Positions 1-5,793 of a stretch of DNA of 5,793 bases are shown one piece after another. The notes beneath the pieces were generated by a model, which was not told the DNA's origin, made no database searches, and saw only the letters and a list, made by a program, of their open reading frames with translations. The stretch's first letter is position 1, and the number at the start of each line of letters is the position of its first letter. This stretch comes from Escherichia coli (GTDB lineage: Bacteria; Pseudomonadota; Gammaproteobacteria; Enterobacterales; Enterobacteriaceae). The translations under genes were made by a program, and so were the position numbers. The stretch lies in assembly GCF_003334255.1 (NCBI RefSeq), contig NZ_QOWU01000103.1; one strand, given 5' to 3'.

Positions 1-77
1 GCGCCTCAGCGCGCCGTCGCGTCGATAAAGATTACGGGATGGGGCGAAACTGGTATCTGTTCGAAAAGGGCCGTAAA
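1..77. repeat. Terminal redundancy: exact copy of 5717-5793, marking the circular junction of a 5716-bp replicon
   Basis: Base-by-base comparison shows gcgcctcagcgcgccgtcgcgtcgataaagattacgggatggggcgaaactggtatctgttcgaaaagggccgtaaa at both ends. The rep reading frame is continuous across the junction. Confidence 0.95.
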
Positions 78-452
78 TGGTCTTACAGGGCGATTCGTCA
101 GGGCTGGCCAGCATTCTCACCGTGGCTTGATGCAGTGATTCAGCGTGTCGAAATGTACAACGCATCGCTTCCCGTTCCGCTTTCTCCGGCTGAATGTCGG
201 GCTATTGGCAAGAGTATTGCGAAATACACCTACCGCAAATTCTCTCCTGAAGGCTTTTCCGCGGTACAGGCTGCTCGAGGTCGTAAGGGCGGTAATGCAA
301 ATTCATCAGAAAATCAGGCTATTAAAGGTCAGAAATCAAAGCGTGTAGCCGTTGCCACATCGGCACGAACTCTGAAGCCGTGGGTGACGTTAGGGATCAG
401 TCGTGCCACATACTATCGAAAACTAAAATGTGATCCAGATCTCGCAAAATGA
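1..452 (+). CDS. rep: ColE2-type replication initiator/primase Rep, C-terminal part. It continues from 5239-5793 across the junction; the first full codon starts at base 3 and the stop TGA is at 450-452.
   Basis: The listed ORF 39-452 is in the same phase as the open frame running off the window end (5239 minus 5716 is congruent with 39 mod 3). The joined product is 309 aa. The C-terminus (...TLGISRATYYRKLKCDPDLAK) looks like a helix-turn-helix DNA-binding tail. The ColE2-type ori follows the stop codon directly, as in ColE2-family plasmids. Confidence 0.9.
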   Translation, partial: ASARRRVDKDYGMGRNWYLFEKGRKWSYRAIRQGWPAFSPWLDAVIQRVEMYNASLPVPLSPAECRAIGKSIAKYTYRKFSPEGFSAVQAARGRKGGNANSSENQAIKGQKSKRVAVATSARTLKPWVTLGISRATYYRKLKCDPDLAK

Positions 453-486
453 GACCAGATAACAAGCCTTATCAGATAACAGCGCC
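453..486 (+). other. ColE2-type origin of replication (Rep binding and priming site)
   Basis: gaccagataacaagccttatcagataacagcgcc lies immediately 3' of the rep stop. It closely resembles the ColE2-P9 minimal ori as I recall it (...GAGACCAGATAAGCCTTATCAGATAACAGCGCC...). It contains the direct repeat CAGATAACA at 456-464 and 473-481. Confidence 0.7.
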
Positions 487-658: not shown

Positions 659-1105
659 TTACGCACTGTCTTTGGTGAGTAGCTCTTTCCCGCGTTTTTC
701 CCATTCCTGCCATTTTGGATGGTTGCGCGGTAGCTCTGCGATTCCTGCGAGTGCGCCTACCAGTTCGGCAGCACTAAACTTTGGTTTTCCGGTTTTGCTG
801 TCCACCAGTCCTGCCACAATCATGAGGCCTGCGGCCTTGTAGAGTTCATGATCCCGCGCCTTTCGTTCCGCCCTTGCGGCTGCCTTCCGTTCTGCCGCTA
901 TTATTGCCGTTACCCTGGCTTTTGCTGCGGCTGCTTTCTCTGCGGTTTTTTCTGCCCGTATCAGTGCGGACAACGTTTTTTCATCCGTCGTTGTTCGGTT
1001 TTTTTTCTCTGCCAGTAACACAAGTAATCTCTGCTGCTCTGACGGTGATTTCAGTCCGTTGATGTAGGCAATTTTTGCACTTAACCACTCTTCACGATTT
1101 GTCAT
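659..1105 (-). CDS. mobC: Relaxosome accessory protein, MobC (RSF1010) / TraD (Ti plasmid)-like, 148 aa from the internal ATG
   Basis: It is divergent from the relaxase across oriT, as in RSF1010. The motif ERKARDHELYKAAGLMIVAGLV resembles the MobC/TraD core (ERK..R..L...G......GL). The ATG at 1105 has the SD-like agaggt 6 nt upstream (revcomp of 1109-1114). The longer ORF start at 1192 has no SD and would run into oriT. Confidence 0.8.
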   Translation of the reverse strand: MTNREEWLSAKIAYINGLKSPSEQQRLLVLLAEKKNRTTTDEKTLSALIRAEKTAEKAAAAKARVTAIIAAERKAAARAERKARDHELYKAAGLMIVAGLVDSKTGKPKFSAAELVGALAGIAELPRNHPKWQEWEKRGKELLTKDSA

Positions 1106-1149
1106 TCTTACCTCTGCACTTTTGCCGTTAATGTGAGTTGTTATTGTGC

Positions 1150-1158
1150 ATAATATCA
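1150..1158 (-). promoter_or_regulatory. Candidate extended -10 promoter for the mobC-like gene
   Basis: The minus strand reads TGaTATTAT (TGn plus a -10 hexamer), about 45 nt upstream of the ATG at 1105. No good -35 was found. Confidence 0.3.
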
Positions 1159-1160
1159 CC

Positions 1161-1189
1161 TTGTCTGCCTGCGTGTGAGACCTTAAAAT
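1161..1189 (+). promoter_or_regulatory. Candidate sigma70 promoter for mobA
   Basis: TTGTCT (1161-1166), 17-nt spacer, TAAAAT (1184-1189). Transcription would read through oriT into mobA. Confidence 0.35.
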
Positions 1190-1253
1190 CATCCCTGATT
1201 AATTCAGGGATGCGCACTTAGACGTTTCTCTCCTTCGTCGAGAAACAGTGCGC
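1190..1253 (-). other. oriT, RSF1010/MOBQ-like, with predicted nic on the minus strand between 1213 and 1212
   Basis: An inverted repeat gtttctc (1224-1230) / gagaaac (1240-1246) has the same arm sequence as the RSF1010 oriT repeat as recalled. On the minus strand the repeat is followed by gtcTAAGTGCG|C, 11 nt to the predicted nick, compared with RSF1010 GAGAAAC-CGGTAAGTGCG|CCCT. A second hairpin follows: catccctga(1190-1198)/tcagggatg(1204-1212). Confidence 0.7.
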
Positions 1254-1276
1254 TCCTGCGGAGGGCTTAACGGCAG

Positions 1277-2362
1277 ATGGCAAGCTACCATTGTACAGTT
1301 AAAACTGGAGCAAAAGGCGTAGCCTTAAAACATGCTGATTATATTTCTAGATCCGGCGAATATAAGAACTACAAATCGCGGGAGGATCTGGAATTTTCGT
1401 CATCCGGTAACATGCCATCATGGGCGAAGAAAAATCCCGCAGAGCTATGGAAAGCAGCAGATGAATTTGAACGAAAAAACGGGACGGCATACCGTGAAAT
1501 TGAGATCGCATTACCGCGAGAACTGACACGCGAACAACGGATAGAACTTGTTGAAGATTTCGTGCAAAAGGAGCTTGGTGATCGCCATGCCTATCAGTAC
1601 GCGATCCACAATCCGCCAGGTGCAATCGACGGAAAGGAACAACCACACGCACATATCATGTTTTGCGAGCGGATTAATGATGGTATTGAACGCGATCCGC
1701 AGCAGTTTTTTAAACGTGCCAACAGCAAATCACCGGAGCGGGGAGGTGCAAAAAAGGCACGCTTTGGTGAGACACCACAAGAGCGAAAATCAGCCTTGGT
1801 TGCGCTACGTTCTCACTGGGCTGATGTGCAGAATGAACACCTTGCGCGGCACGGCCATCAGTCGCGCGTTGATCATCGTTCACTGAAAGAACAGGGTATC
1901 AAGCGCACACCGGAAGTTCATCTTGGTCCCGTTCGTGTTGCTGTTATGAATGCTGATCAGGTTTGTGCAATTCTGGCACGGAGAAACGCGGAACGGGAGA
2001 AGCTAGAAGCAGAGCAGGAACGGGACAGCATCATTGACCTTAAAACGACCTTGAAGGAAGCGTTAGCTGAACGGGATAACATACCACCAAGCCTGGATGA
2101 GCTTGGGGCAGAATTGAAGGCGTTTGTTGAAAGCTCGTTTGATGAACTCAATGAGGTAATGCAGCTTAATTCATTGATTAACGGTGCGCTGGACTCAATG
2201 ATGAAGCAATTCCAGGTGGAAGAGGAGCGGAAGTTGCAACAGGAACGACTAATTGAAGCCGAAAAGCAAAGAGACCTGGAGAGGGAAAGAGAAAGAGTGC
2301 GCCAGCGTGCGTATTCCTCACCAGCACCATCACGTTCACGTGATTATGGTATGAGCCGTTAA
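1277..2362 (+). CDS. mobA: MOBQ-family relaxase (MobA/MobL-type), 361 aa
   Basis: The N-terminus MASYHCTVKTGAKGVALKHADYISRSGEY parallels RSF1010 MobA (MAIYHLTAKTGSR...AKADYIQREGKY), so the predicted catalytic Tyr is Y22. The histidine triad region is HNPPGAIDGKEQPHAHIMF. The C-terminus is a charged coiled coil. SD ggaggg at 1260-1265. Confidence 0.93.
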   Translation: MASYHCTVKTGAKGVALKHADYISRSGEYKNYKSREDLEFSSSGNMPSWAKKNPAELWKAADEFERKNGTAYREIEIALPRELTREQRIELVEDFVQKELGDRHAYQYAIHNPPGAIDGKEQPHAHIMFCERINDGIERDPQQFFKRANSKSPERGGAKKARFGETPQERKSALVALRSHWADVQNEHLARHGHQSRVDHRSLKEQGIKRTPEVHLGPVRVAVMNADQVCAILARRNAEREKLEAEQERDSIIDLKTTLKEALAERDNIPPSLDELGAELKAFVESSFDELNEVMQLNSLINGALDSMMKQFQVEEERKLQQERLIEAEKQRDLERERERVRQRAYSSPAPSRSRDYGMSR

Positions 2363-2382
2363 GCACTGGAGGTTTTTATTTT

Positions 2383-3099
2383 ATGCAATTGGATGAACAT
2401 TCAAGAAAAATTGCTGCTCTTGTTGCGTATAATGATAAACAAATAAAAGAAATGAACAGGCTAATTACTCTGCTTAATGAAAGAGTGAATGACTTAAATA
2501 CCTTTACAAGTACTCTTGAACGTGAAGGTAAAGTTGTTTCTGGAATTTCTTATTCCTTTAGGGATAGTGTGTCTAATGTTAAATTTTATATTAATAAAGG
2601 AATGGATGAGGCATCTTGTAAATTACAGAAATCAGTCTCAGATACACTAACGTCATTACTCCGCGAAAAATTATCTTTCACTCTCAATGATGTAAAGAAA
2701 GAGTGGGTTGATTTCGAGGAGCAAACAAGTAAAGAGATAAAGGAATCATTAAAGCAGACGACCAGAGAGGCCGAAGTTGCGACAGGTATAATTAGAAAAA
2801 CAATGGAGAAGTATACAGTAACAAGGATTGTCGAAAAGGTAATTGTGTTGATTGTATTATTTTTATTGCTAATGATCGCTCCTGTTTTCTATGCTGAATA
2901 TCTCAAAATGAATATTAGTTCGCTAATGGAAGAACAGAAAAAACATGAATCCATGTTAAAAGAATGGAAAGAAAAAGCTCCATTGGCCGAGTTCTCGAAG
3001 TGTGGAGATTATCGTAAAGCATGCGTGTTAGTTGATGACGAAAGCGGATATTATTTTAATGAACAATCACCAAATAAAAAATATGCCATACTGAAATAG
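2383..3099 (+). CDS. Hypothetical coiled-coil, single-pass membrane protein, 238 aa
   Basis: GGAGG (2368-2372) lies 10 nt before the ATG and 20 nt after the mobA stop. About 150 aa are heptad-rich and charged. One hydrophobic helix, VIVLIVLFLLLMIAPVFY, spans aa 153-170. The 68-aa tail has Cys207 and Cys214. The gene is AT-rich like the rest of the cargo. I recognise no family. Confidence 0.75.
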   Translation: MQLDEHSRKIAALVAYNDKQIKEMNRLITLLNERVNDLNTFTSTLEREGKVVSGISYSFRDSVSNVKFYINKGMDEASCKLQKSVSDTLTSLLREKLSFTLNDVKKEWVDFEEQTSKEIKESLKQTTREAEVATGIIRKTMEKYTVTRIVEKVIVLIVLFLLLMIAPVFYAEYLKMNISSLMEEQKKHESMLKEWKEKAPLAEFSKCGDYRKACVLVDDESGYYFNEQSPNKKYAILK

Positions 3100-3108
3100 T
3101 GTTAAGTA

Positions 3109-3142
3109 ACTCATGCCGTCTTATGACTAAGGCTGCATGAGT
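3109..3142. terminator. Hairpin between convergent genes, a possible bidirectional terminator
   Basis: actcatgc(3109-3116)/gcatgagt(3135-3142) plus an inner stem gtctta/taaggc (one G-U pair) with loop tgac. There is no clear U-tract on either strand. Confidence 0.35.
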
Positions 3143-3156
3143 ATAAAAACGGCGTT

Positions 3157-3729
3157 TCACGTAAAAATAAAATAAATACCTGTACCTAATATAAAAATGG
3201 AACTACATATGCTTATGTATCTTGAGAATGATGGCGTCAATTTATCCCTTATCGTTAAGCTAATAGCTATGTAAATAAGATCTGTTAGGAATGATATAAA
3301 TATAAATAAAACACCCAATATAAAAAAGTTTAATGTGATATTTGTATTATTATCTATAAAGGTTGGTATTAACGCAGCAAAGAAAAGATACGCCTTGGGG
3401 TTTAATAATGGTATCAAAAAAGGTTTTTGCTCTTTTCTTTGTTTGTTTTTTTTATTAATTAAACCCATTAATCCTATGTATATTAAATAGCCTCCACCGA
3501 ATATTTTTATAATGTGAAAATGTTGTTCTGTGCTGGATGTTGAGGATAACGCGAAAAGAGATATTGCCATGACGATAGTCTCGCCAATTCTTATGTATAT
3601 ACTTGTTTTTATTGATGACTTTAATCCATGTAAAAAGGCATTGTTTATAACCAATGCAACGCCAGGCCCTATTGATATAGTTTGCGATAAGGTTACGATA
3701 GCAAATGATAATAATGTTGAATATTCCAT
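3157..3729 (-). CDS. LysE/RhtB-family amino-acid (derivative) exporter, 190 aa
   Basis: Family hallmarks can be read directly: N-terminal ...SQTISIGPGVALVINNA (PGP-type motif), KIFGGGYLIYIGLMGL, and LLNPKAYLFFAALIPTFID. About six hydrophobic segments. The start lies 6 nt after the upstream gene's stop. Confidence 0.88.
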   Translation of the reverse strand: MEYSTLLSFAIVTLSQTISIGPGVALVINNAFLHGLKSSIKTSIYIRIGETIVMAISLFALSSTSSTEQHFHIIKIFGGGYLIYIGLMGLINKKNKQRKEQKPFLIPLLNPKAYLFFAALIPTFIDNNTNITLNFFILGVLFIFISFLTDLIYIAISLTIRDKLTPSFSRYISICSSIFILGTGIYFIFT

Positions 3730-3735
3730 GTTTAC

Positions 3736-4686
3736 TTACCATGATATATTTCGTGGGAGCTTTTCATATACATATTCCATAGGAATTGCAGCTTTCGGTA
3801 ATAAATTTATAAATGTTGATATGTGTTTTAGTGAATTGCTGGCGGCGATTGAGTAAAAATTTCCGCTATTCCAATATATTGATGCGTATTTAAAATGTTG
3901 TTTAATTGCGGAAAGCATATCGTCAACACTAACTTCATTCAAATTCATTGTGTTTAGTACGATTTCCTTTTTGGTGTTAATCTCATCTTTCGAGAAATAC
4001 CTTTGTTTGAATGAATAATCTTTTTGGATTTCTCTTTTTTGATATTCATCATGTTCTGAACTATGTTTTTCTGTAAATATGAAAATACCATCATTATTTA
4101 ATAGCCTTTTTACGTGGTTTATTTGCCCAGATCTGTTAGGTGGGTACATTTGAAATGTGGTGTCTTCTATTATAATATCGAATCCTTGATTAAATTGTTT
4201 AAGATTTGAATTTTTTAGTCTTTCCTCTAACAGGAAAAATGGAGTGCAAATAAAATAAGCGTTTTCACTTGAGCCATACTTAAAAAATGCATGTTCATTT
4301 TCTTTTGTTGGACTGGTTGTTAATGTTTGTATGTTTCCTTTTGATAATTCTGAAATGGTTCTTGCCATTGCGCCCTCAGCCATACCAAGACACCATGTGT
4401 TTAATTTTTTGTTTAGCGTGATTGCGTATTTTATTACTGTTGTTCCTAATCTGCACTCTTCTTCCTTGCTGTATGGTATACTGCAAAAATAATGATTAAC
4501 GAAAGGGCCGCTGTTTTTTGTGAGGTGTTTGGCAAACTTAATGTAATCATAAGAATGAAAAAGCCGATCATCTATTTCTACTAGTCTAAAAGGTTTGTGT
4601 TTTTCCCCTGATGCAGTTGATGAGAAAAATTCTGCCATGCCGTTTATTCTCGGAGCGGAAATACATTCATTTATAAAATTATTCAT
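3736..4686 (-). CDS. Divergent class I SAM-dependent methyltransferase-fold protein, CmoA (carboxy-SAM synthase)-like, 316 aa
   Basis: SD agagga lies 7 nt before the ATG. WCLGMAEGAMA aligns to CmoA motif I YDLGCSLGAAT, and IQTLTTSP aligns to IIAIDNSP. FDIIIEDTTFQMY...LLNNDGIFIFTEK aligns to ...LNPGGALVLSEK. The C-terminal FSKDEINTKKEIVLNTM...SVDD...NSGNFYSIAA aligns to CmoA YSELEISQKRSMLENVM...SVET...QCFNFGSLVA. The CmoA sequence was recalled from memory. Confidence 0.8.
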   Translation of the reverse strand: MNNFINECISAPRINGMAEFFSSTASGEKHKPFRLVEIDDRLFHSYDYIKFAKHLTKNSGPFVNHYFCSIPYSKEEECRLGTTVIKYAITLNKKLNTWCLGMAEGAMARTISELSKGNIQTLTTSPTKENEHAFFKYGSSENAYFICTPFFLLEERLKNSNLKQFNQGFDIIIEDTTFQMYPPNRSGQINHVKRLLNNDGIFIFTEKHSSEHDEYQKREIQKDYSFKQRYFSKDEINTKKEIVLNTMNLNEVSVDDMLSAIKQHFKYASIYWNSGNFYSIAASNSLKHISTFINLLPKAAIPMEYVYEKLPRNISW

Positions 4687-4787
4687 TTTCCTATCCTCTG
4701 GTTTGATTTTTGGAATTTGTTGTTATGACTCTTCAATGCTAATTCTCTTGTAAGCTTTTTTACACGCCATAAACACGATTATGATGT

Positions 4788-4814
4788 TTTATATTGTCGA
4801 TATTTCGTTGTCCA
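4788..4814 (-). promoter_or_regulatory. Candidate promoter of the CmoA-like/LysE operon
   Basis: The minus strand reads TGGACA (4814-4809), 15-nt spacer, TATAAA (4793-4788). The alternative is a 17-nt spacer to TAAAAC. The spacing is suboptimal, and the leader would be about 100 nt. Confidence 0.25.
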
Positions 4815-4937
4815 GACTGGATATGTTTGGAAATTTGTTTTCATGCGGGTTAGTTCAGCTGGCTTTCTGGATGAGAAAGTTTGCTGTTTTGACCAGTTCG
4901 CGCTTCTGAAGGGGTGAAACCGATCATTAATCGCTTT

Positions 4938-4955: not shown

Positions 4956-5055
4956 CCCCTAAAAACGATTCTGACGCGTTTTTTGTGTTTTCCCTAGGTT
5001 TATCTTGTCTTTTTGAGTTTTTTGCGTCAGAAAGCGATTGAGAGCGTTTTAGAGG

Positions 5056-5083
5056 GTACGTACAAGAGGAGTTATGGTAAATG
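5056..5083 (+). other. cer-like Xer recombination core site (XerC arm, 6-bp central region, XerD arm)
   Basis: GGTACGTACAA-gaggag-TTATGGTAAAT compares with ColE1 cer GGTGCGTACAA-TTAAGGGA-TTATGGTAAAT. The XerD arm is identical and the XerC arm matches 10/11. The preceding gcgttttag also matches the cer flank as recalled. Confidence 0.78.
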
Positions 5084-5140: not shown

Positions 5141-5262
5141 GAAAAACAAACGCCCCTGAAATTCGTGCCGATCCGCCAAGACTGTCACGAAAATTCAAGG
5201 GGCGTGTGGGTCGTAACACACGGAGGAAATCCTAACACATGAGCGCCGTACTTCAACTCTTC
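5141..5262 (-). ncRNA. Antisense copy-number control RNA (ColE2 RNA I-like); the 5' end is approximate
   Basis: The minus strand carries a long hairpin (5206-5150, GC-rich base acgcccct/aggggcgt, 19-nt apical loop) followed by uuuguuuuu (5149-5141), a canonical intrinsic terminator. Candidate promoter TTCGTA (5297-5292), 17-nt spacer, TAATTT (5274-5269). The predicted length of about 120 nt is compatible with the reported RNA I of about 115 nt. Confidence 0.5.
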
Positions 5263-5793
5263 AGGGAAAAATTACCGCACAAACCGTACTGTACGAACGA
5301 TTTCACGTACGGCGTTCGCATTCTACCGAAAGATATCGCCATCCTTGCCCGTTTCATCCAGCAGAACCAGCCACATGCGCAGCACTGGCTGGCCTTTGAC
5401 GTTGACCGGACGGGGGCAGCGATCGACTGGAGCGACCGGAACTGTCCGGCCCCGAACATCACCGTAAAAAATCCACGTAACGGGCACGCGCATCTGCTCT
5501 ACGCGCTCACTCTTCCGGTGAGAACCGCGCCGGATGCATCGGCTTCGGCGCTCAAATACGCTGCCGTGATTGAGCGTGCGCTGTGTGAAAAACTGGGCGC
5601 GGATGTGAACTACAGCGGCCTGATCTGCAAAAATCCGTTCCACCAGGAATGGCAGGTGGTGGAATGGCGTCGGGAACTCTATACCCTCGACGAACTGGCG
5701 GATTATCTTGATTTGAGCGCCTCAGCGCGCCGTCGCGTCGATAAAGATTACGGGATGGGGCGAAACTGGTATCTGTTCGAAAAGGGCCGTAAA
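5239..5793 (+). CDS. rep: ColE2-type replication initiator/primase Rep, N-terminal part (185 codons, open to the window end, continues at base 78 via the junction)
   Basis: My translation has no stop codon: MSAVLQLFREKLPHKPYCTNDFTYGVRILPKDIAILARFIQQNQPHAQHWLAFDVDRTGAAIDW...NGHAHLLYAL... It contains a primase-type acidic DVD motif and a GHAHLLY motif, and matches my memory of the ColE2/ColE3 Rep N-terminus. Confidence 0.92.
   Translation, partial: MSAVLQLFREKLPHKPYCTNDFTYGVRILPKDIAILARFIQQNQPHAQHWLAFDVDRTGAAIDWSDRNCPAPNITVKNPRNGHAHLLYALTLPVRTAPDASASALKYAAVIERALCEKLGADVNYSGLICKNPFHQEWQVVEWRRELYTLDELADYLDLSASARRRVDKDYGMGRNWYLFEKGRK
5717..5793. repeat. Second copy of the terminal redundancy (identical to 1-77)
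   Basis: Exact 77/77 identity to the window start. Confidence 0.95.

Follow-up and report, generated by a model that had tools for sequence, protein, structure and literature searches.

A portable two-gene operon, coupling a putative CmoA-like enzyme to a LysE-family exporter, on a small ColE2-type plasmid of Escherichia coli

What does a small ColE2-type plasmid offer its host when it carries no colicin operon? The question is raised by a 5793-nt stretch of Escherichia coli DNA (contig NZ_QOWU01000103.1; hereafter the window), in which an AT-rich block between the mobilisation gene mobA and a cer-like site contains three genes: ORF238, ORF316 and a gene for a LysE/RhtB-family exporter, here called LysE. 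On a plasmid of 5.7 kb the cargo is the whole reason why a host might keep it. A first-pass annotation had treated the three genes as one accessory system. We find instead that the block consists of one gene of the mobilisation module (ORF238) and a portable two-gene operon (ORF316-LysE), and that this operon is a horizontally mobile unit recurring across bacterial phyla. As to its function, we put at slightly better than even the chance that ORF316 makes a small amino-acid-like product that LysE exports, the likeliest pay-off being a secreted antimetabolite used in competition.

ORF316 and LysE lie on the minus strand, ORF316 first, with a gap of 6 nt between them (Table 1). Homologues of ORF316 with 37-70% identity were found in Citrobacter, Klebsiella, Pectobacterium, many Rhizobiales, Niallia and Blautia. 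There were 180 confirmed matches in a collection with one genome per species and 204 plasmid records, mostly rhizobial megaplasmids (among them symbiosis and At/Ti-type plasmids of rhizobia and agrobacteria). At all enterobacterial and Bacillota loci, and at some alpha-proteobacterial ones, a LysE gene stood directly 3' of the enzyme gene and co-oriented with it, the two genes overlapping by 11 nt at one extreme and lying a few tens of nucleotides apart at the other; the surroundings were otherwise unrelated, and enzyme and exporter shared a strand in every LysE-type locus. The pair was found in Citrobacter (4-nt overlap), Pectobacterium, Niallia, Blautia (overlap) and Ciceribacter, and a metagenome scan added about 13 further loci, most with a G+C of 0.27-0.36. 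In Pectobacterium it formed an AT-rich island (G+C 0.32, against 0.51 for the neighbourhood) adjoining gcvTHP on the chromosome. The first-pass annotation had asked for a test of whether the three genes travel together; the answer is yes for ORF316 and LysE, and no for ORF238.

In most Rhizobiales, what stood beside the enzyme gene was a divergently oriented AraC regulator and an MFS transporter (71 of 94 loci), and a few loci had an MFS gene after the enzyme gene. A protein of about 407-470 amino acids accompanied the ORF316 homologue at 58 alpha-proteobacterial loci, encoded either within the divergent AraC-MFS operon or directly 3' of the enzyme gene; this protein of about 470 amino acids gave no sequence match in Pfam, NCBIfam or the PDB, and it is probably an additional pathway component at these loci. 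Where enzyme and LysE occurred together, their pairwise identities co-varied (r = 0.96, a value inflated by one near-identical pair, without which the clade pattern still holds). Across phyla, identity was 43-63% for the enzyme and 26-55% for the exporter.

The two genes are also under purifying selection, and their loss runs in one direction. Two plasmid lineages that differ by about 8% at the DNA level gave dN/dS ratios of 0.09 for ORF316, 0.18 for LysE, 0.23 for ORF238 and 0.06 for mobA, and these low values indicate purifying selection on ORF238, LysE and ORF316. Among 34 PLSDB plasmids with this LysE, 27 carried both genes and seven lacked ORF316; no PLSDB plasmid carried ORF316 without LysE. 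The enzyme gene had been removed by at least two independent deletions, corresponding to window positions 3882-4789 (L014, CP057837.1) and 3781-4639 (L015, NZ_CP100506.1), the second on a different replicon (rep_cluster_1778). Both derivatives retained LysE intact together with part of the region upstream of the operon (from 4790 in L014, and 4640-4914 in L015). The conservation of the translationally coupled pair, the substitution of other pumps for LysE in other clades and the absence of enzyme-only plasmids together argue that the exporter is dedicated to the enzyme's product.

ORF238 has different associations. Its N-terminal part is predicted to be long and helical, residues 152-170 to form a single transmembrane (TM) segment, and the small C-terminal domain has a pair of conserved cysteines, in keeping with the first-pass label of a membrane coiled-coil protein. 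It was assigned to no family by Pfam, NCBIfam or PADLOC, the last giving a weak partial match of the coiled-coil part to AbiZ (E = 6.5e-4), and its AlphaFold2 model (pLDDT 57) was too poor for a fold search. A word-indexed search returned only copies with at least 88% identity, all from this plasmid family, and an exhaustive HMMER scan of 1.8 billion representatives gave 11 matches in total. The full-length relatives, P0079, P0084, P0085 and P0088 (one at 47% identity and three at 24-34%), share the motif W-K-x-K-A-P-x-A-[DE]-x-x-x-C-G...C after the single TM helix.

Every ORF238 relative with a readable contig stood immediately 3' of a MobA_MobL gene, and in most cases a TraD-like gene was also present in divergent orientation; a MobA_MobL gene lies directly upstream in the window, in L098-L101, and in L102, L103 and L104. 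The relative with 47% identity, ORF240, occurs on 4.5-kb ColE2-type sister plasmids in the order mobA-ORF240-rep-traD, with no other cargo. Since ORF238 directly follows MobA_MobL even on plasmids with no cargo or a different one, it belongs to the mobilisation module. By these sequence comparisons it is a backbone gene of the TraD-MobA module, where it would encode an accessory membrane protein, possibly for coupling or exclusion; it is not a cargo partner, and its family looks like an undescribed and previously unnoticed third gene of this MOBQ module. The ORF238 homologue on a cargo-less plasmid is likewise AT-rich (G+C 0.376, against 0.486 for mobA), so that the drop in G+C at the mobA stop is a property of the mob-linked gene. 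A single three-component system made up of ORF238, ORF316 and LysE, as first proposed, would account for the adjacency of the genes, their similarly low G+C and their joint presence on 27 of 34 plasmids. We nevertheless consider it the least credible of all the explanations discussed here: ORF238 homologues follow mobA on plasmids that have neither ORF316 nor LysE, ORF238 is missing from every ORF316 locus outside this plasmid family, and it converges on the ORF316-LysE operon with a hairpin in between. None of 200 shuffled sequences folded as well as this stem-loop, which is likely to be a shared terminator. What stands of the three-gene cargo, then, is the ORF316-LysE pair.

The slot that holds the pair extends from the end of ORF238 to about 4864-4873, with homology breakpoints at about 3259 and at 4864-4873; homology to the window resumes at 4864 in a cargo-less plasmid (L101) and at 4873 in a plasmid with a DUF1868 gene (L104). 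The latter, a 5152-bp E. coli sister plasmid (NZ_JBVWEU010000009.1), matched window positions 1145-3258 at 92% identity, ORF238 included, and had an AT-rich (0.33) DUF1868 gene at 2172-2969 in place of ORF316-LysE. About 100 nt of the 3' end of LysE persist as a remnant beside the DUF1868 gene, and the slot therefore exchanges its cargo.

The base composition of the block was as first described. G+C was 0.322 in positions 2363-4850 and 0.503 in the remainder of the window (chi-square p = 8e-43). An unconstrained maximum-likelihood segmentation of the circle with two breakpoints placed the low-GC segment at 2371-4845, and a sliding G+C profile displayed the same step. The break at the mobA stop, the recovery near 4850 and the foreign composition of the block were all reproduced, and two hand counts of G+C, 9/60 for 3301-3360 and 38/60 for 5521-5580, were exact on recount. 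By gene, G+C was 0.33 for ORF238, 0.29 for LysE and 0.32 for ORF316, against 0.48 for mobA, 0.49 for traD and 0.50 for rep. A survey of 5426 complete E. coli genomes gave 38 matching places, every one plasmid-borne and none chromosomal; these are not housekeeping genes of the host.

The first gene of the operon is, on sequence comparison, a remote relative of CmoA and not a CmoA. All family matches of ORF316 were below threshold: 27.5 bits against a cut-off of 193.3 for TIGR00740 (CmoA), 18.6 against 285 for NF011995, and likewise for the spermine synthase and Methyltransf_31 cores; PADLOC gave a weak partial match of the methyltransferase core to mad2 (E = 1.8e-3). An AlphaFold model from a 46-sequence alignment (pLDDT 94.8) confidently predicts a class I methyltransferase fold, to which CmoA is the closest known structure; Foldseek agreed and added CysG. 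When the family was used for a profile search of the PDB, CmoA and YecO were the sole relatives (E = 3e-4), and hhalign against E. coli CmoA gave a probability of 90.5 at about 12-16% identity. The earlier label "CmoA-like" thus holds in the sense of remote homology, and fails in the stricter sense because the CmoA equivalog cut-offs were missed. A profile search with the family alignment for named relatives returned only further unnamed members of the family.

CmoA (PDB 4GEK/4IWN; H. influenzae YecO, 1IM8) and ORF316 share a P-x-Y motif in the N-terminal lid, a motif I of the form GxxxG (L-G-x-A-E-G in ORF316), a T-x-Q segment after beta-4, and a helical insert that in CmoA holds the carboxy-S-adenosylmethionine (Cx-SAM) ligand. 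They differ in that the N-terminus of ORF316 is about 35 residues longer, with an invariant motif of its own, and in that an invariant E-D pair ends beta-4. The gene partner differs too, being an exporter (LysE or MFS) and not cmoB: no cmoB-like gene was seen at 95 ORF316-family loci, whereas 83 of the 95 had a polytopic membrane-protein or exporter partner, that is, a gene for a protein with at least four TM segments within 2.5 kb. The ligand residues of CmoA listed in UniProt are Tyr39, Gly64, Asp89, Asp117, Asn132 and Arg199. In hhalign and the family alignment, Tyr39 corresponds to Y72 (conserved), Gly64 to G101 (invariant) and Asn132 to D175 (invariant), whereas the S-adenosylmethionine (SAM)-contacting residues Asp89 and Asp117 are unconserved, aligning with T/S/C and with P149 (the alignment being uncertain there). 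Arg199, which binds the Cx-SAM carboxylate, aligns with position 240, a lysine in the window and variable in the family; the adjacent K239 is invariant. Beta-2 (residues 119-124) is followed by S125-P126, and none of the 46 sequences has an acidic residue there.

By structure, the nearest solved relatives also include CysG and BelI, SAM- and Ca2+-dependent carboxyl O-methyltransferases of 3-isopropylmalate/3-sec-butylmalate, with which MM_2633 (3DTN) is grouped among the known structures closest to ORF316. The substrate that CysG and BelI methylate is a small carboxylic acid (PMC11408123), and both act within multi-enzyme beta-lactone pathways. None of the three has detectable sequence similarity to ORF316, the His-His-Asp motif is missing from it, and the ribose- and adenine-binding Asp residues of CysG (PMC11408123) have no counterpart in it. 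We consider it likely that ORF316 uses SAM, an assumption as far as binding is concerned, because the ribose- and adenine-contacting Asp residues of CmoA and CysG are not conserved.

The label of the second gene was secure. The LysE protein matched Pfam PF01810 with E = 2.9e-19 (69.8 bits, against a gathering threshold of 25.6) over residues 17-188 of 190, and a crude hydropathy scan found five hydrophobic segments. Its best match in NCBIfam was the RhtB-type subfamily TIGR00949 (61 bits against 184). The equivalogs all fell far below their cut-offs (LeuE, 50.2 against 165; RhtB, 41.8 against 209; RhtC, 20.9 against 288; LysE, 16.9 against 214; and EamB likewise), and the substrate of the plasmid LysE therefore cannot be deduced from them.

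In the reading that we favour, ORF316, a soluble enzyme, would use SAM as co-substrate on a common cytoplasmic metabolite to give a small amino-acid-like product, which the coupled LysE/RhtB-type exporter would pump out, thereby also protecting the producer. The pay-off, at the position of the colicin operon, would be a secreted antimetabolite for competition with the exporter as the immunity function, and plasmids that carry only the exporter would be immune non-producers. In Pseudomonas, gene clusters for amino-acid antimetabolites usually rely on a LysE-family exporter as their transporter, and the producer dies when both exporters of the FVG cluster are deleted (bioRxiv 10.1101/080572); by analogy, a secreted antimetabolite with its pump as immunity may be what the operon provides. 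The first-pass annotation had left allelopathy, metabolite handling and defence open. Of these we favour metabolite export; an anti-phage defence role is unsupported, PADLOC having given only weak matches at chance level.

Several observations weigh against export of an antimetabolite. No product, substrate, activity or functional name was found for any member of the ORF316 family in any source, which accords with the first-pass remark that the genes were undescribed. In this family the ribose-binding Asp at the end of beta-2 is replaced by T/S/C-S-P and the adenine-binding Asp after beta-3 by G-P-F. A promoter scan of the window gave no convincing sigma-70 site in the region upstream of the operon, sites being no commoner than in shuffled sequence, so that the operon promoter is only presumed. 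No adjacent membrane protein was encoded at 12 of the 95 loci, and the plasmid is rare, being carried by 29 of the 5426 complete E. coli genomes (about 0.5%). Finally, detoxification systems too classically combine an AraC regulator, an MFS pump and a modifying enzyme, and exporter-only derivatives suit a role in resistance as well as one in immunity.

The last two points bear on a detoxification or resistance module, in which ORF316 would modify an incoming toxic compound (an amino-acid analogue, or a plant or gut metabolite) and LysE, or the MFS pump in rhizobia, would expel that compound, modified or not, so that the benefit to the host would be tolerance and not attack. Most family members do lie beside a divergent AraC regulator and an MFS pump, as is typical of inducible efflux, and if most of the benefit comes from the pump by itself, plasmids that have kept the exporter and lost the enzyme are to be expected. 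The LysE-family proteins ArgO and LeuE export toxic amino-acid analogues, which we counted in its favour. However, the enzyme is the better conserved of the two proteins across phyla and is under the stronger constraint, by the identities and dN/dS values given above. The minimal cassette occurs in very different habitats (gut E. coli, Blautia, Pectobacterium and Niallia), which fits a universal internal substrate better, and some loci adjoin quorum-sensing regulators, which more often govern secreted products. The data would also suit an inducible module of this kind; we regard detoxification as unlikely, while giving it more weight than any other alternative to export of a product made by the cell.

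The same quorum-sensing neighbours might suggest that ORF316 makes a diffusible SAM-derived signal that the transporter releases. On pSymA of S. meliloti the homologue is preceded by the gene for a LuxR-type regulator and has traI and the gene for another autoinducer-binding protein as neighbours, in Blautia it comes after agrB and the genes of a LytTR two-component pair, and LysE/RhtB proteins are classically tied to efflux of homoserine and homoserine lactone. Yet neither the E. coli plasmid nor the loci of Citrobacter, Pectobacterium and Niallia contain a cognate receptor gene, and the adjacency, seen in two contexts only, fits a quorum-regulated product equally well; signal production seems to us highly unlikely. 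We hold it to be less probable still that ORF316 breaks down SAM, with methylthioadenosine and homoserine lactone as possible products, as a means of countering SAM-dependent restriction on entry into a new cell, with LysE removing the toxic lactone. That idea would make sense of an RhtB-like exporter and of the nearness of relaxase genes in at least four independent settings, and SAM-cyclising enzymes with a methyltransferase fold, AzeJ and VioH, do exist (PMC11794875). It is made unlikely by the near absence of the gene from viral contigs, with a single match in 2.9 million. In addition, the close structural matches of ORF316 do not include AzeJ-type enzymes, the pair also occupies ordinary chromosomal sites such as that beside gcvTHP in Pectobacterium, rhizobia have dedicated AraC regulators for it, and constitutive depletion of SAM would be costly to the host. 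Export of a cell-made, amino-acid-like product by a dedicated LysE thus continues to be the reading that we prefer.

Table 1. Coordinates of features in the window and at related loci (L numbers are our labels for loci other than the window)
Feature	Sequence	Position	Strand	Description
ORF316	Window	3736-4686	-	Predicted cytoplasmic class I methyltransferase-fold protein; first gene of cargo operon
LysE	Window	3157-3729	-	LysE/RhtB-family exporter, 190 amino acids; second gene of cargo operon
Operon upstream region	Window	4687-4872	-	AT-rich; ribosome-binding site and presumed promoter; right edge of variable slot
Stem-loop	Window	3109-3142		Between convergent ORF238 and LysE; fold -16.2 kcal/mol, z = -2.8
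ORF238	Window	2383-3099	+	Begins 20 nt past mobA stop, same strand
mobA	Window	1277-2362	+	MOBQ relaxase; Pfam MobA_MobL, E = 8.8e-38; ORF238 downstream
traD-like gene	Window	659-1105	-	Mobilisation gene; Pfam TraD PF06412, E = 2.1e-8; 447-nt coding sequence in public record; divergent from mobA
rep	Window	5239-5716 and 1-452		ColE2-type Rep, over window ends; Pfam Replicase PF03090, E = 2.5e-42
Origin-like sequence	Window	449-485		AAAATGAGACCAGATAACAAGCCTTATCAGATAACAGCGCC; overlaps rep stop codon
cer-like XerC/XerD site	Window	5055-5082	+	GGTACGTACAA-GAGGAG-TTATGGTAAAT; exact pattern match; just outside cargo slot
ORF238 family member	L098	5001-5723		
ORF238 family member	L101	1387-2109		
ORF238 family member	L102	1077-1661		
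ORF238 family member	L103	3261-3863		
ORF238 family member	L104	1249-1965		
Gene for protein of about 470 amino acids	L096	7034-8440		
Gene for protein of about 470 amino acids	L097	2113-3519		
Gene for protein of about 470 amino acids	L009	2131-3354		
Relaxase near enzyme module	L002	9728-12224		Citrobacter island
Relaxase near enzyme module	L006	7764-9785		
Relaxase near enzyme module	L097	7641-12227		R. etli group
SMa0974-family conjugal-transfer regulator	L097	7067-7537		Follows enzyme module
Quorum-sensing context	L096	144-5760		S. meliloti pSymA; ORF316 homologue after LuxR-type regulator, near traI and another autoinducer-binding protein
Quorum-sensing context	L012	831-4808		Blautia; ORF316 homologue after agrB and LytTR two-component pair
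GNAT acetyltransferase	L002	5260-5796		Citrobacter; upstream of enzyme
GNAT acetyltransferase	L096	8452-9063		S. meliloti; two genes downstream of enzyme
Enzyme-LysE pair	L115	5001-6537		OGQR01000309.1, 47-kb metagenome contig

The remaining features of the window make up the backbone. The window represents a complete circular plasmid of 5716 bp, in that positions 1-77 are identical to 5717-5793 (a 77-bp overlap), and the circularity of the record leaves rep split across its ends. E. coli plasmid JE86-ST05_p5 (NZ_AP022820.1) matches it at 100% identity, and about 20 more records are near-identical; PLSDB types the plasmid as MOBQ and mobilizable. The entire 2.5-kb block also occurs within larger E. 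coli plasmid records, namely NC_019062.1 (30,016 bp), NZ_CP146684.1 (102.7 kb), NZ_MZ367885.1 (122 kb), NZ_OZ547118.1 (82 kb) and NZ_JBXRYH010000003.1 (186 kb), which may be cointegrates or assemblies that include the small plasmid. The papers searched made no mention of the accession numbers of the three proteins. The Replicase match of Rep and the origin-like sequence directly after the rep stop support the first-pass assignment to the ColE2 type; the latter resembles the ColE2 origin. The pattern searched for at the cer-like site, a consensus of ColE1 cer, had no match in 200 shuffles (none expected by chance). An Rfam search of the window gave no RNA family, antisense RNA included, at E <= 0.1. 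As first reported, the ORF list of the window includes no colicin, immunity or lysis gene, and a scan for LexA boxes gave one match with one mismatch, within rep, which is chance level.

At the other loci, the neighbourhood of the enzyme module offered some further observations. A second enterobacterial pair, in a metagenome contig (L115), encodes an enzyme 70% and a LysE 54% identical to those of the window; it lies near IS2 fragments and its gene G+C is also 0.32. In at least four independent elements, with three relaxase types between them, the module lies one or two genes from a relaxase gene, the four being the present plasmid, the island in Citrobacter, a plasmid of Agrobacterium and the pB group of R. 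etli. This proximity may reflect merely where plasmids keep cargo. In the R. etli group the module is followed by a regulator of conjugal transfer. The GNAT genes that flank the enzyme in Citrobacter and S. meliloti belong to a family of acetyltransferases that often detoxify amino-acid analogues. RcgR/RcgA of rhizobial plasmids was considered as a possible identity for ORF316 and its neighbour of about 470 amino acids on account of gene sizes, an operon near tra genes and presence in Sinorhizobium and Shinella, and was ruled out, as the published RcgR/RcgA pair is an alpha/beta hydrolase and a protein with six TM segments.

What is most likely new here, to judge from the gene content, is an enzyme-plus-LysE secretion cassette built on an uncharacterised family of CmoA-like enzymes. 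Identification of the product would give a function to the entire ORF316 family, which so far has no characterised member, and would show what a CmoA-like fold minus the usual SAM-binding acids can do. The plasmid itself resembles the colicin plasmids of the ColE2/ColE3 group in its PF03090 Rep, the origin-like sequence after rep, the cer-like site, the MOBQ module and the possession of one cargo position. It differs from them in its cargo, a metabolic enzyme and a transporter, and in lacking both a LexA box and any gene for a colicin, an immunity protein or a lysis protein.

Closer parallels to the cargo are found in the antimetabolite clusters of Pseudomonas. One of these, mrsABC, is said in work by Braun and colleagues from 2010 to consist of a SAM methyltransferase, an aminotransferase and a LysE exporter. 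In the clusters for 3-methylarginine (mrsABC), AMB (ambABCDE) and FVG (gvg), the gene for a biosynthetic enzyme shares a transcript with that for a LysE/RhtB exporter, which secretes a toxic amino-acid-like product and protects the producer (bioRxiv 10.1101/080572). The ORF316-LysE operon is similar in the coupling of its exporter gene to the enzyme gene. It differs in having two genes only, with an enzyme of the CmoA-like family and no aminotransferase or other tailoring enzyme, in its location on a 5.7-kb enterobacterial plasmid and in its recurrence across phyla.

A second comparison is with microcins 15m and 93m, which, according to Perez-Diaz and Clowes in 1980, are reportedly determined by small plasmids. 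These are "historical" small methionine-related inhibitors excreted by intestinal E. coli, methionine-reversible derivatives of methionine that block homoserine O-transsuccinylase and are made by 7% of neonatal enterobacterial isolates (PMC6795089, PMC12162799). Neither of these sources gives a gene or a structure for them. The present plasmid, at 0.5% of complete genomes, is rarer than the 7% of producers. It is a long shot, then, that ORF316-LysE is a two-gene "metabolite bacteriocin", yielding an antimetabolite of the SAM/methionine pathway with an exporter that doubles as immunity, and possibly the determinant of microcins 15m/93m; if it were, the exporter-only "cheater" plasmids would be accounted for. 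Even so, a SAM-related enzyme together with an exporter of amino acids, both encoded by a small, mobilizable plasmid of E. coli, is the kind of determinant to be expected for such microcins. Should the product prove inhibitory, it would follow that colicin-type plasmids can trade a protein toxin for a small-molecule toxin, and the operon would offer a concrete and testable candidate for the "amino-acid-derived microcins" known since the 1970s-80s.

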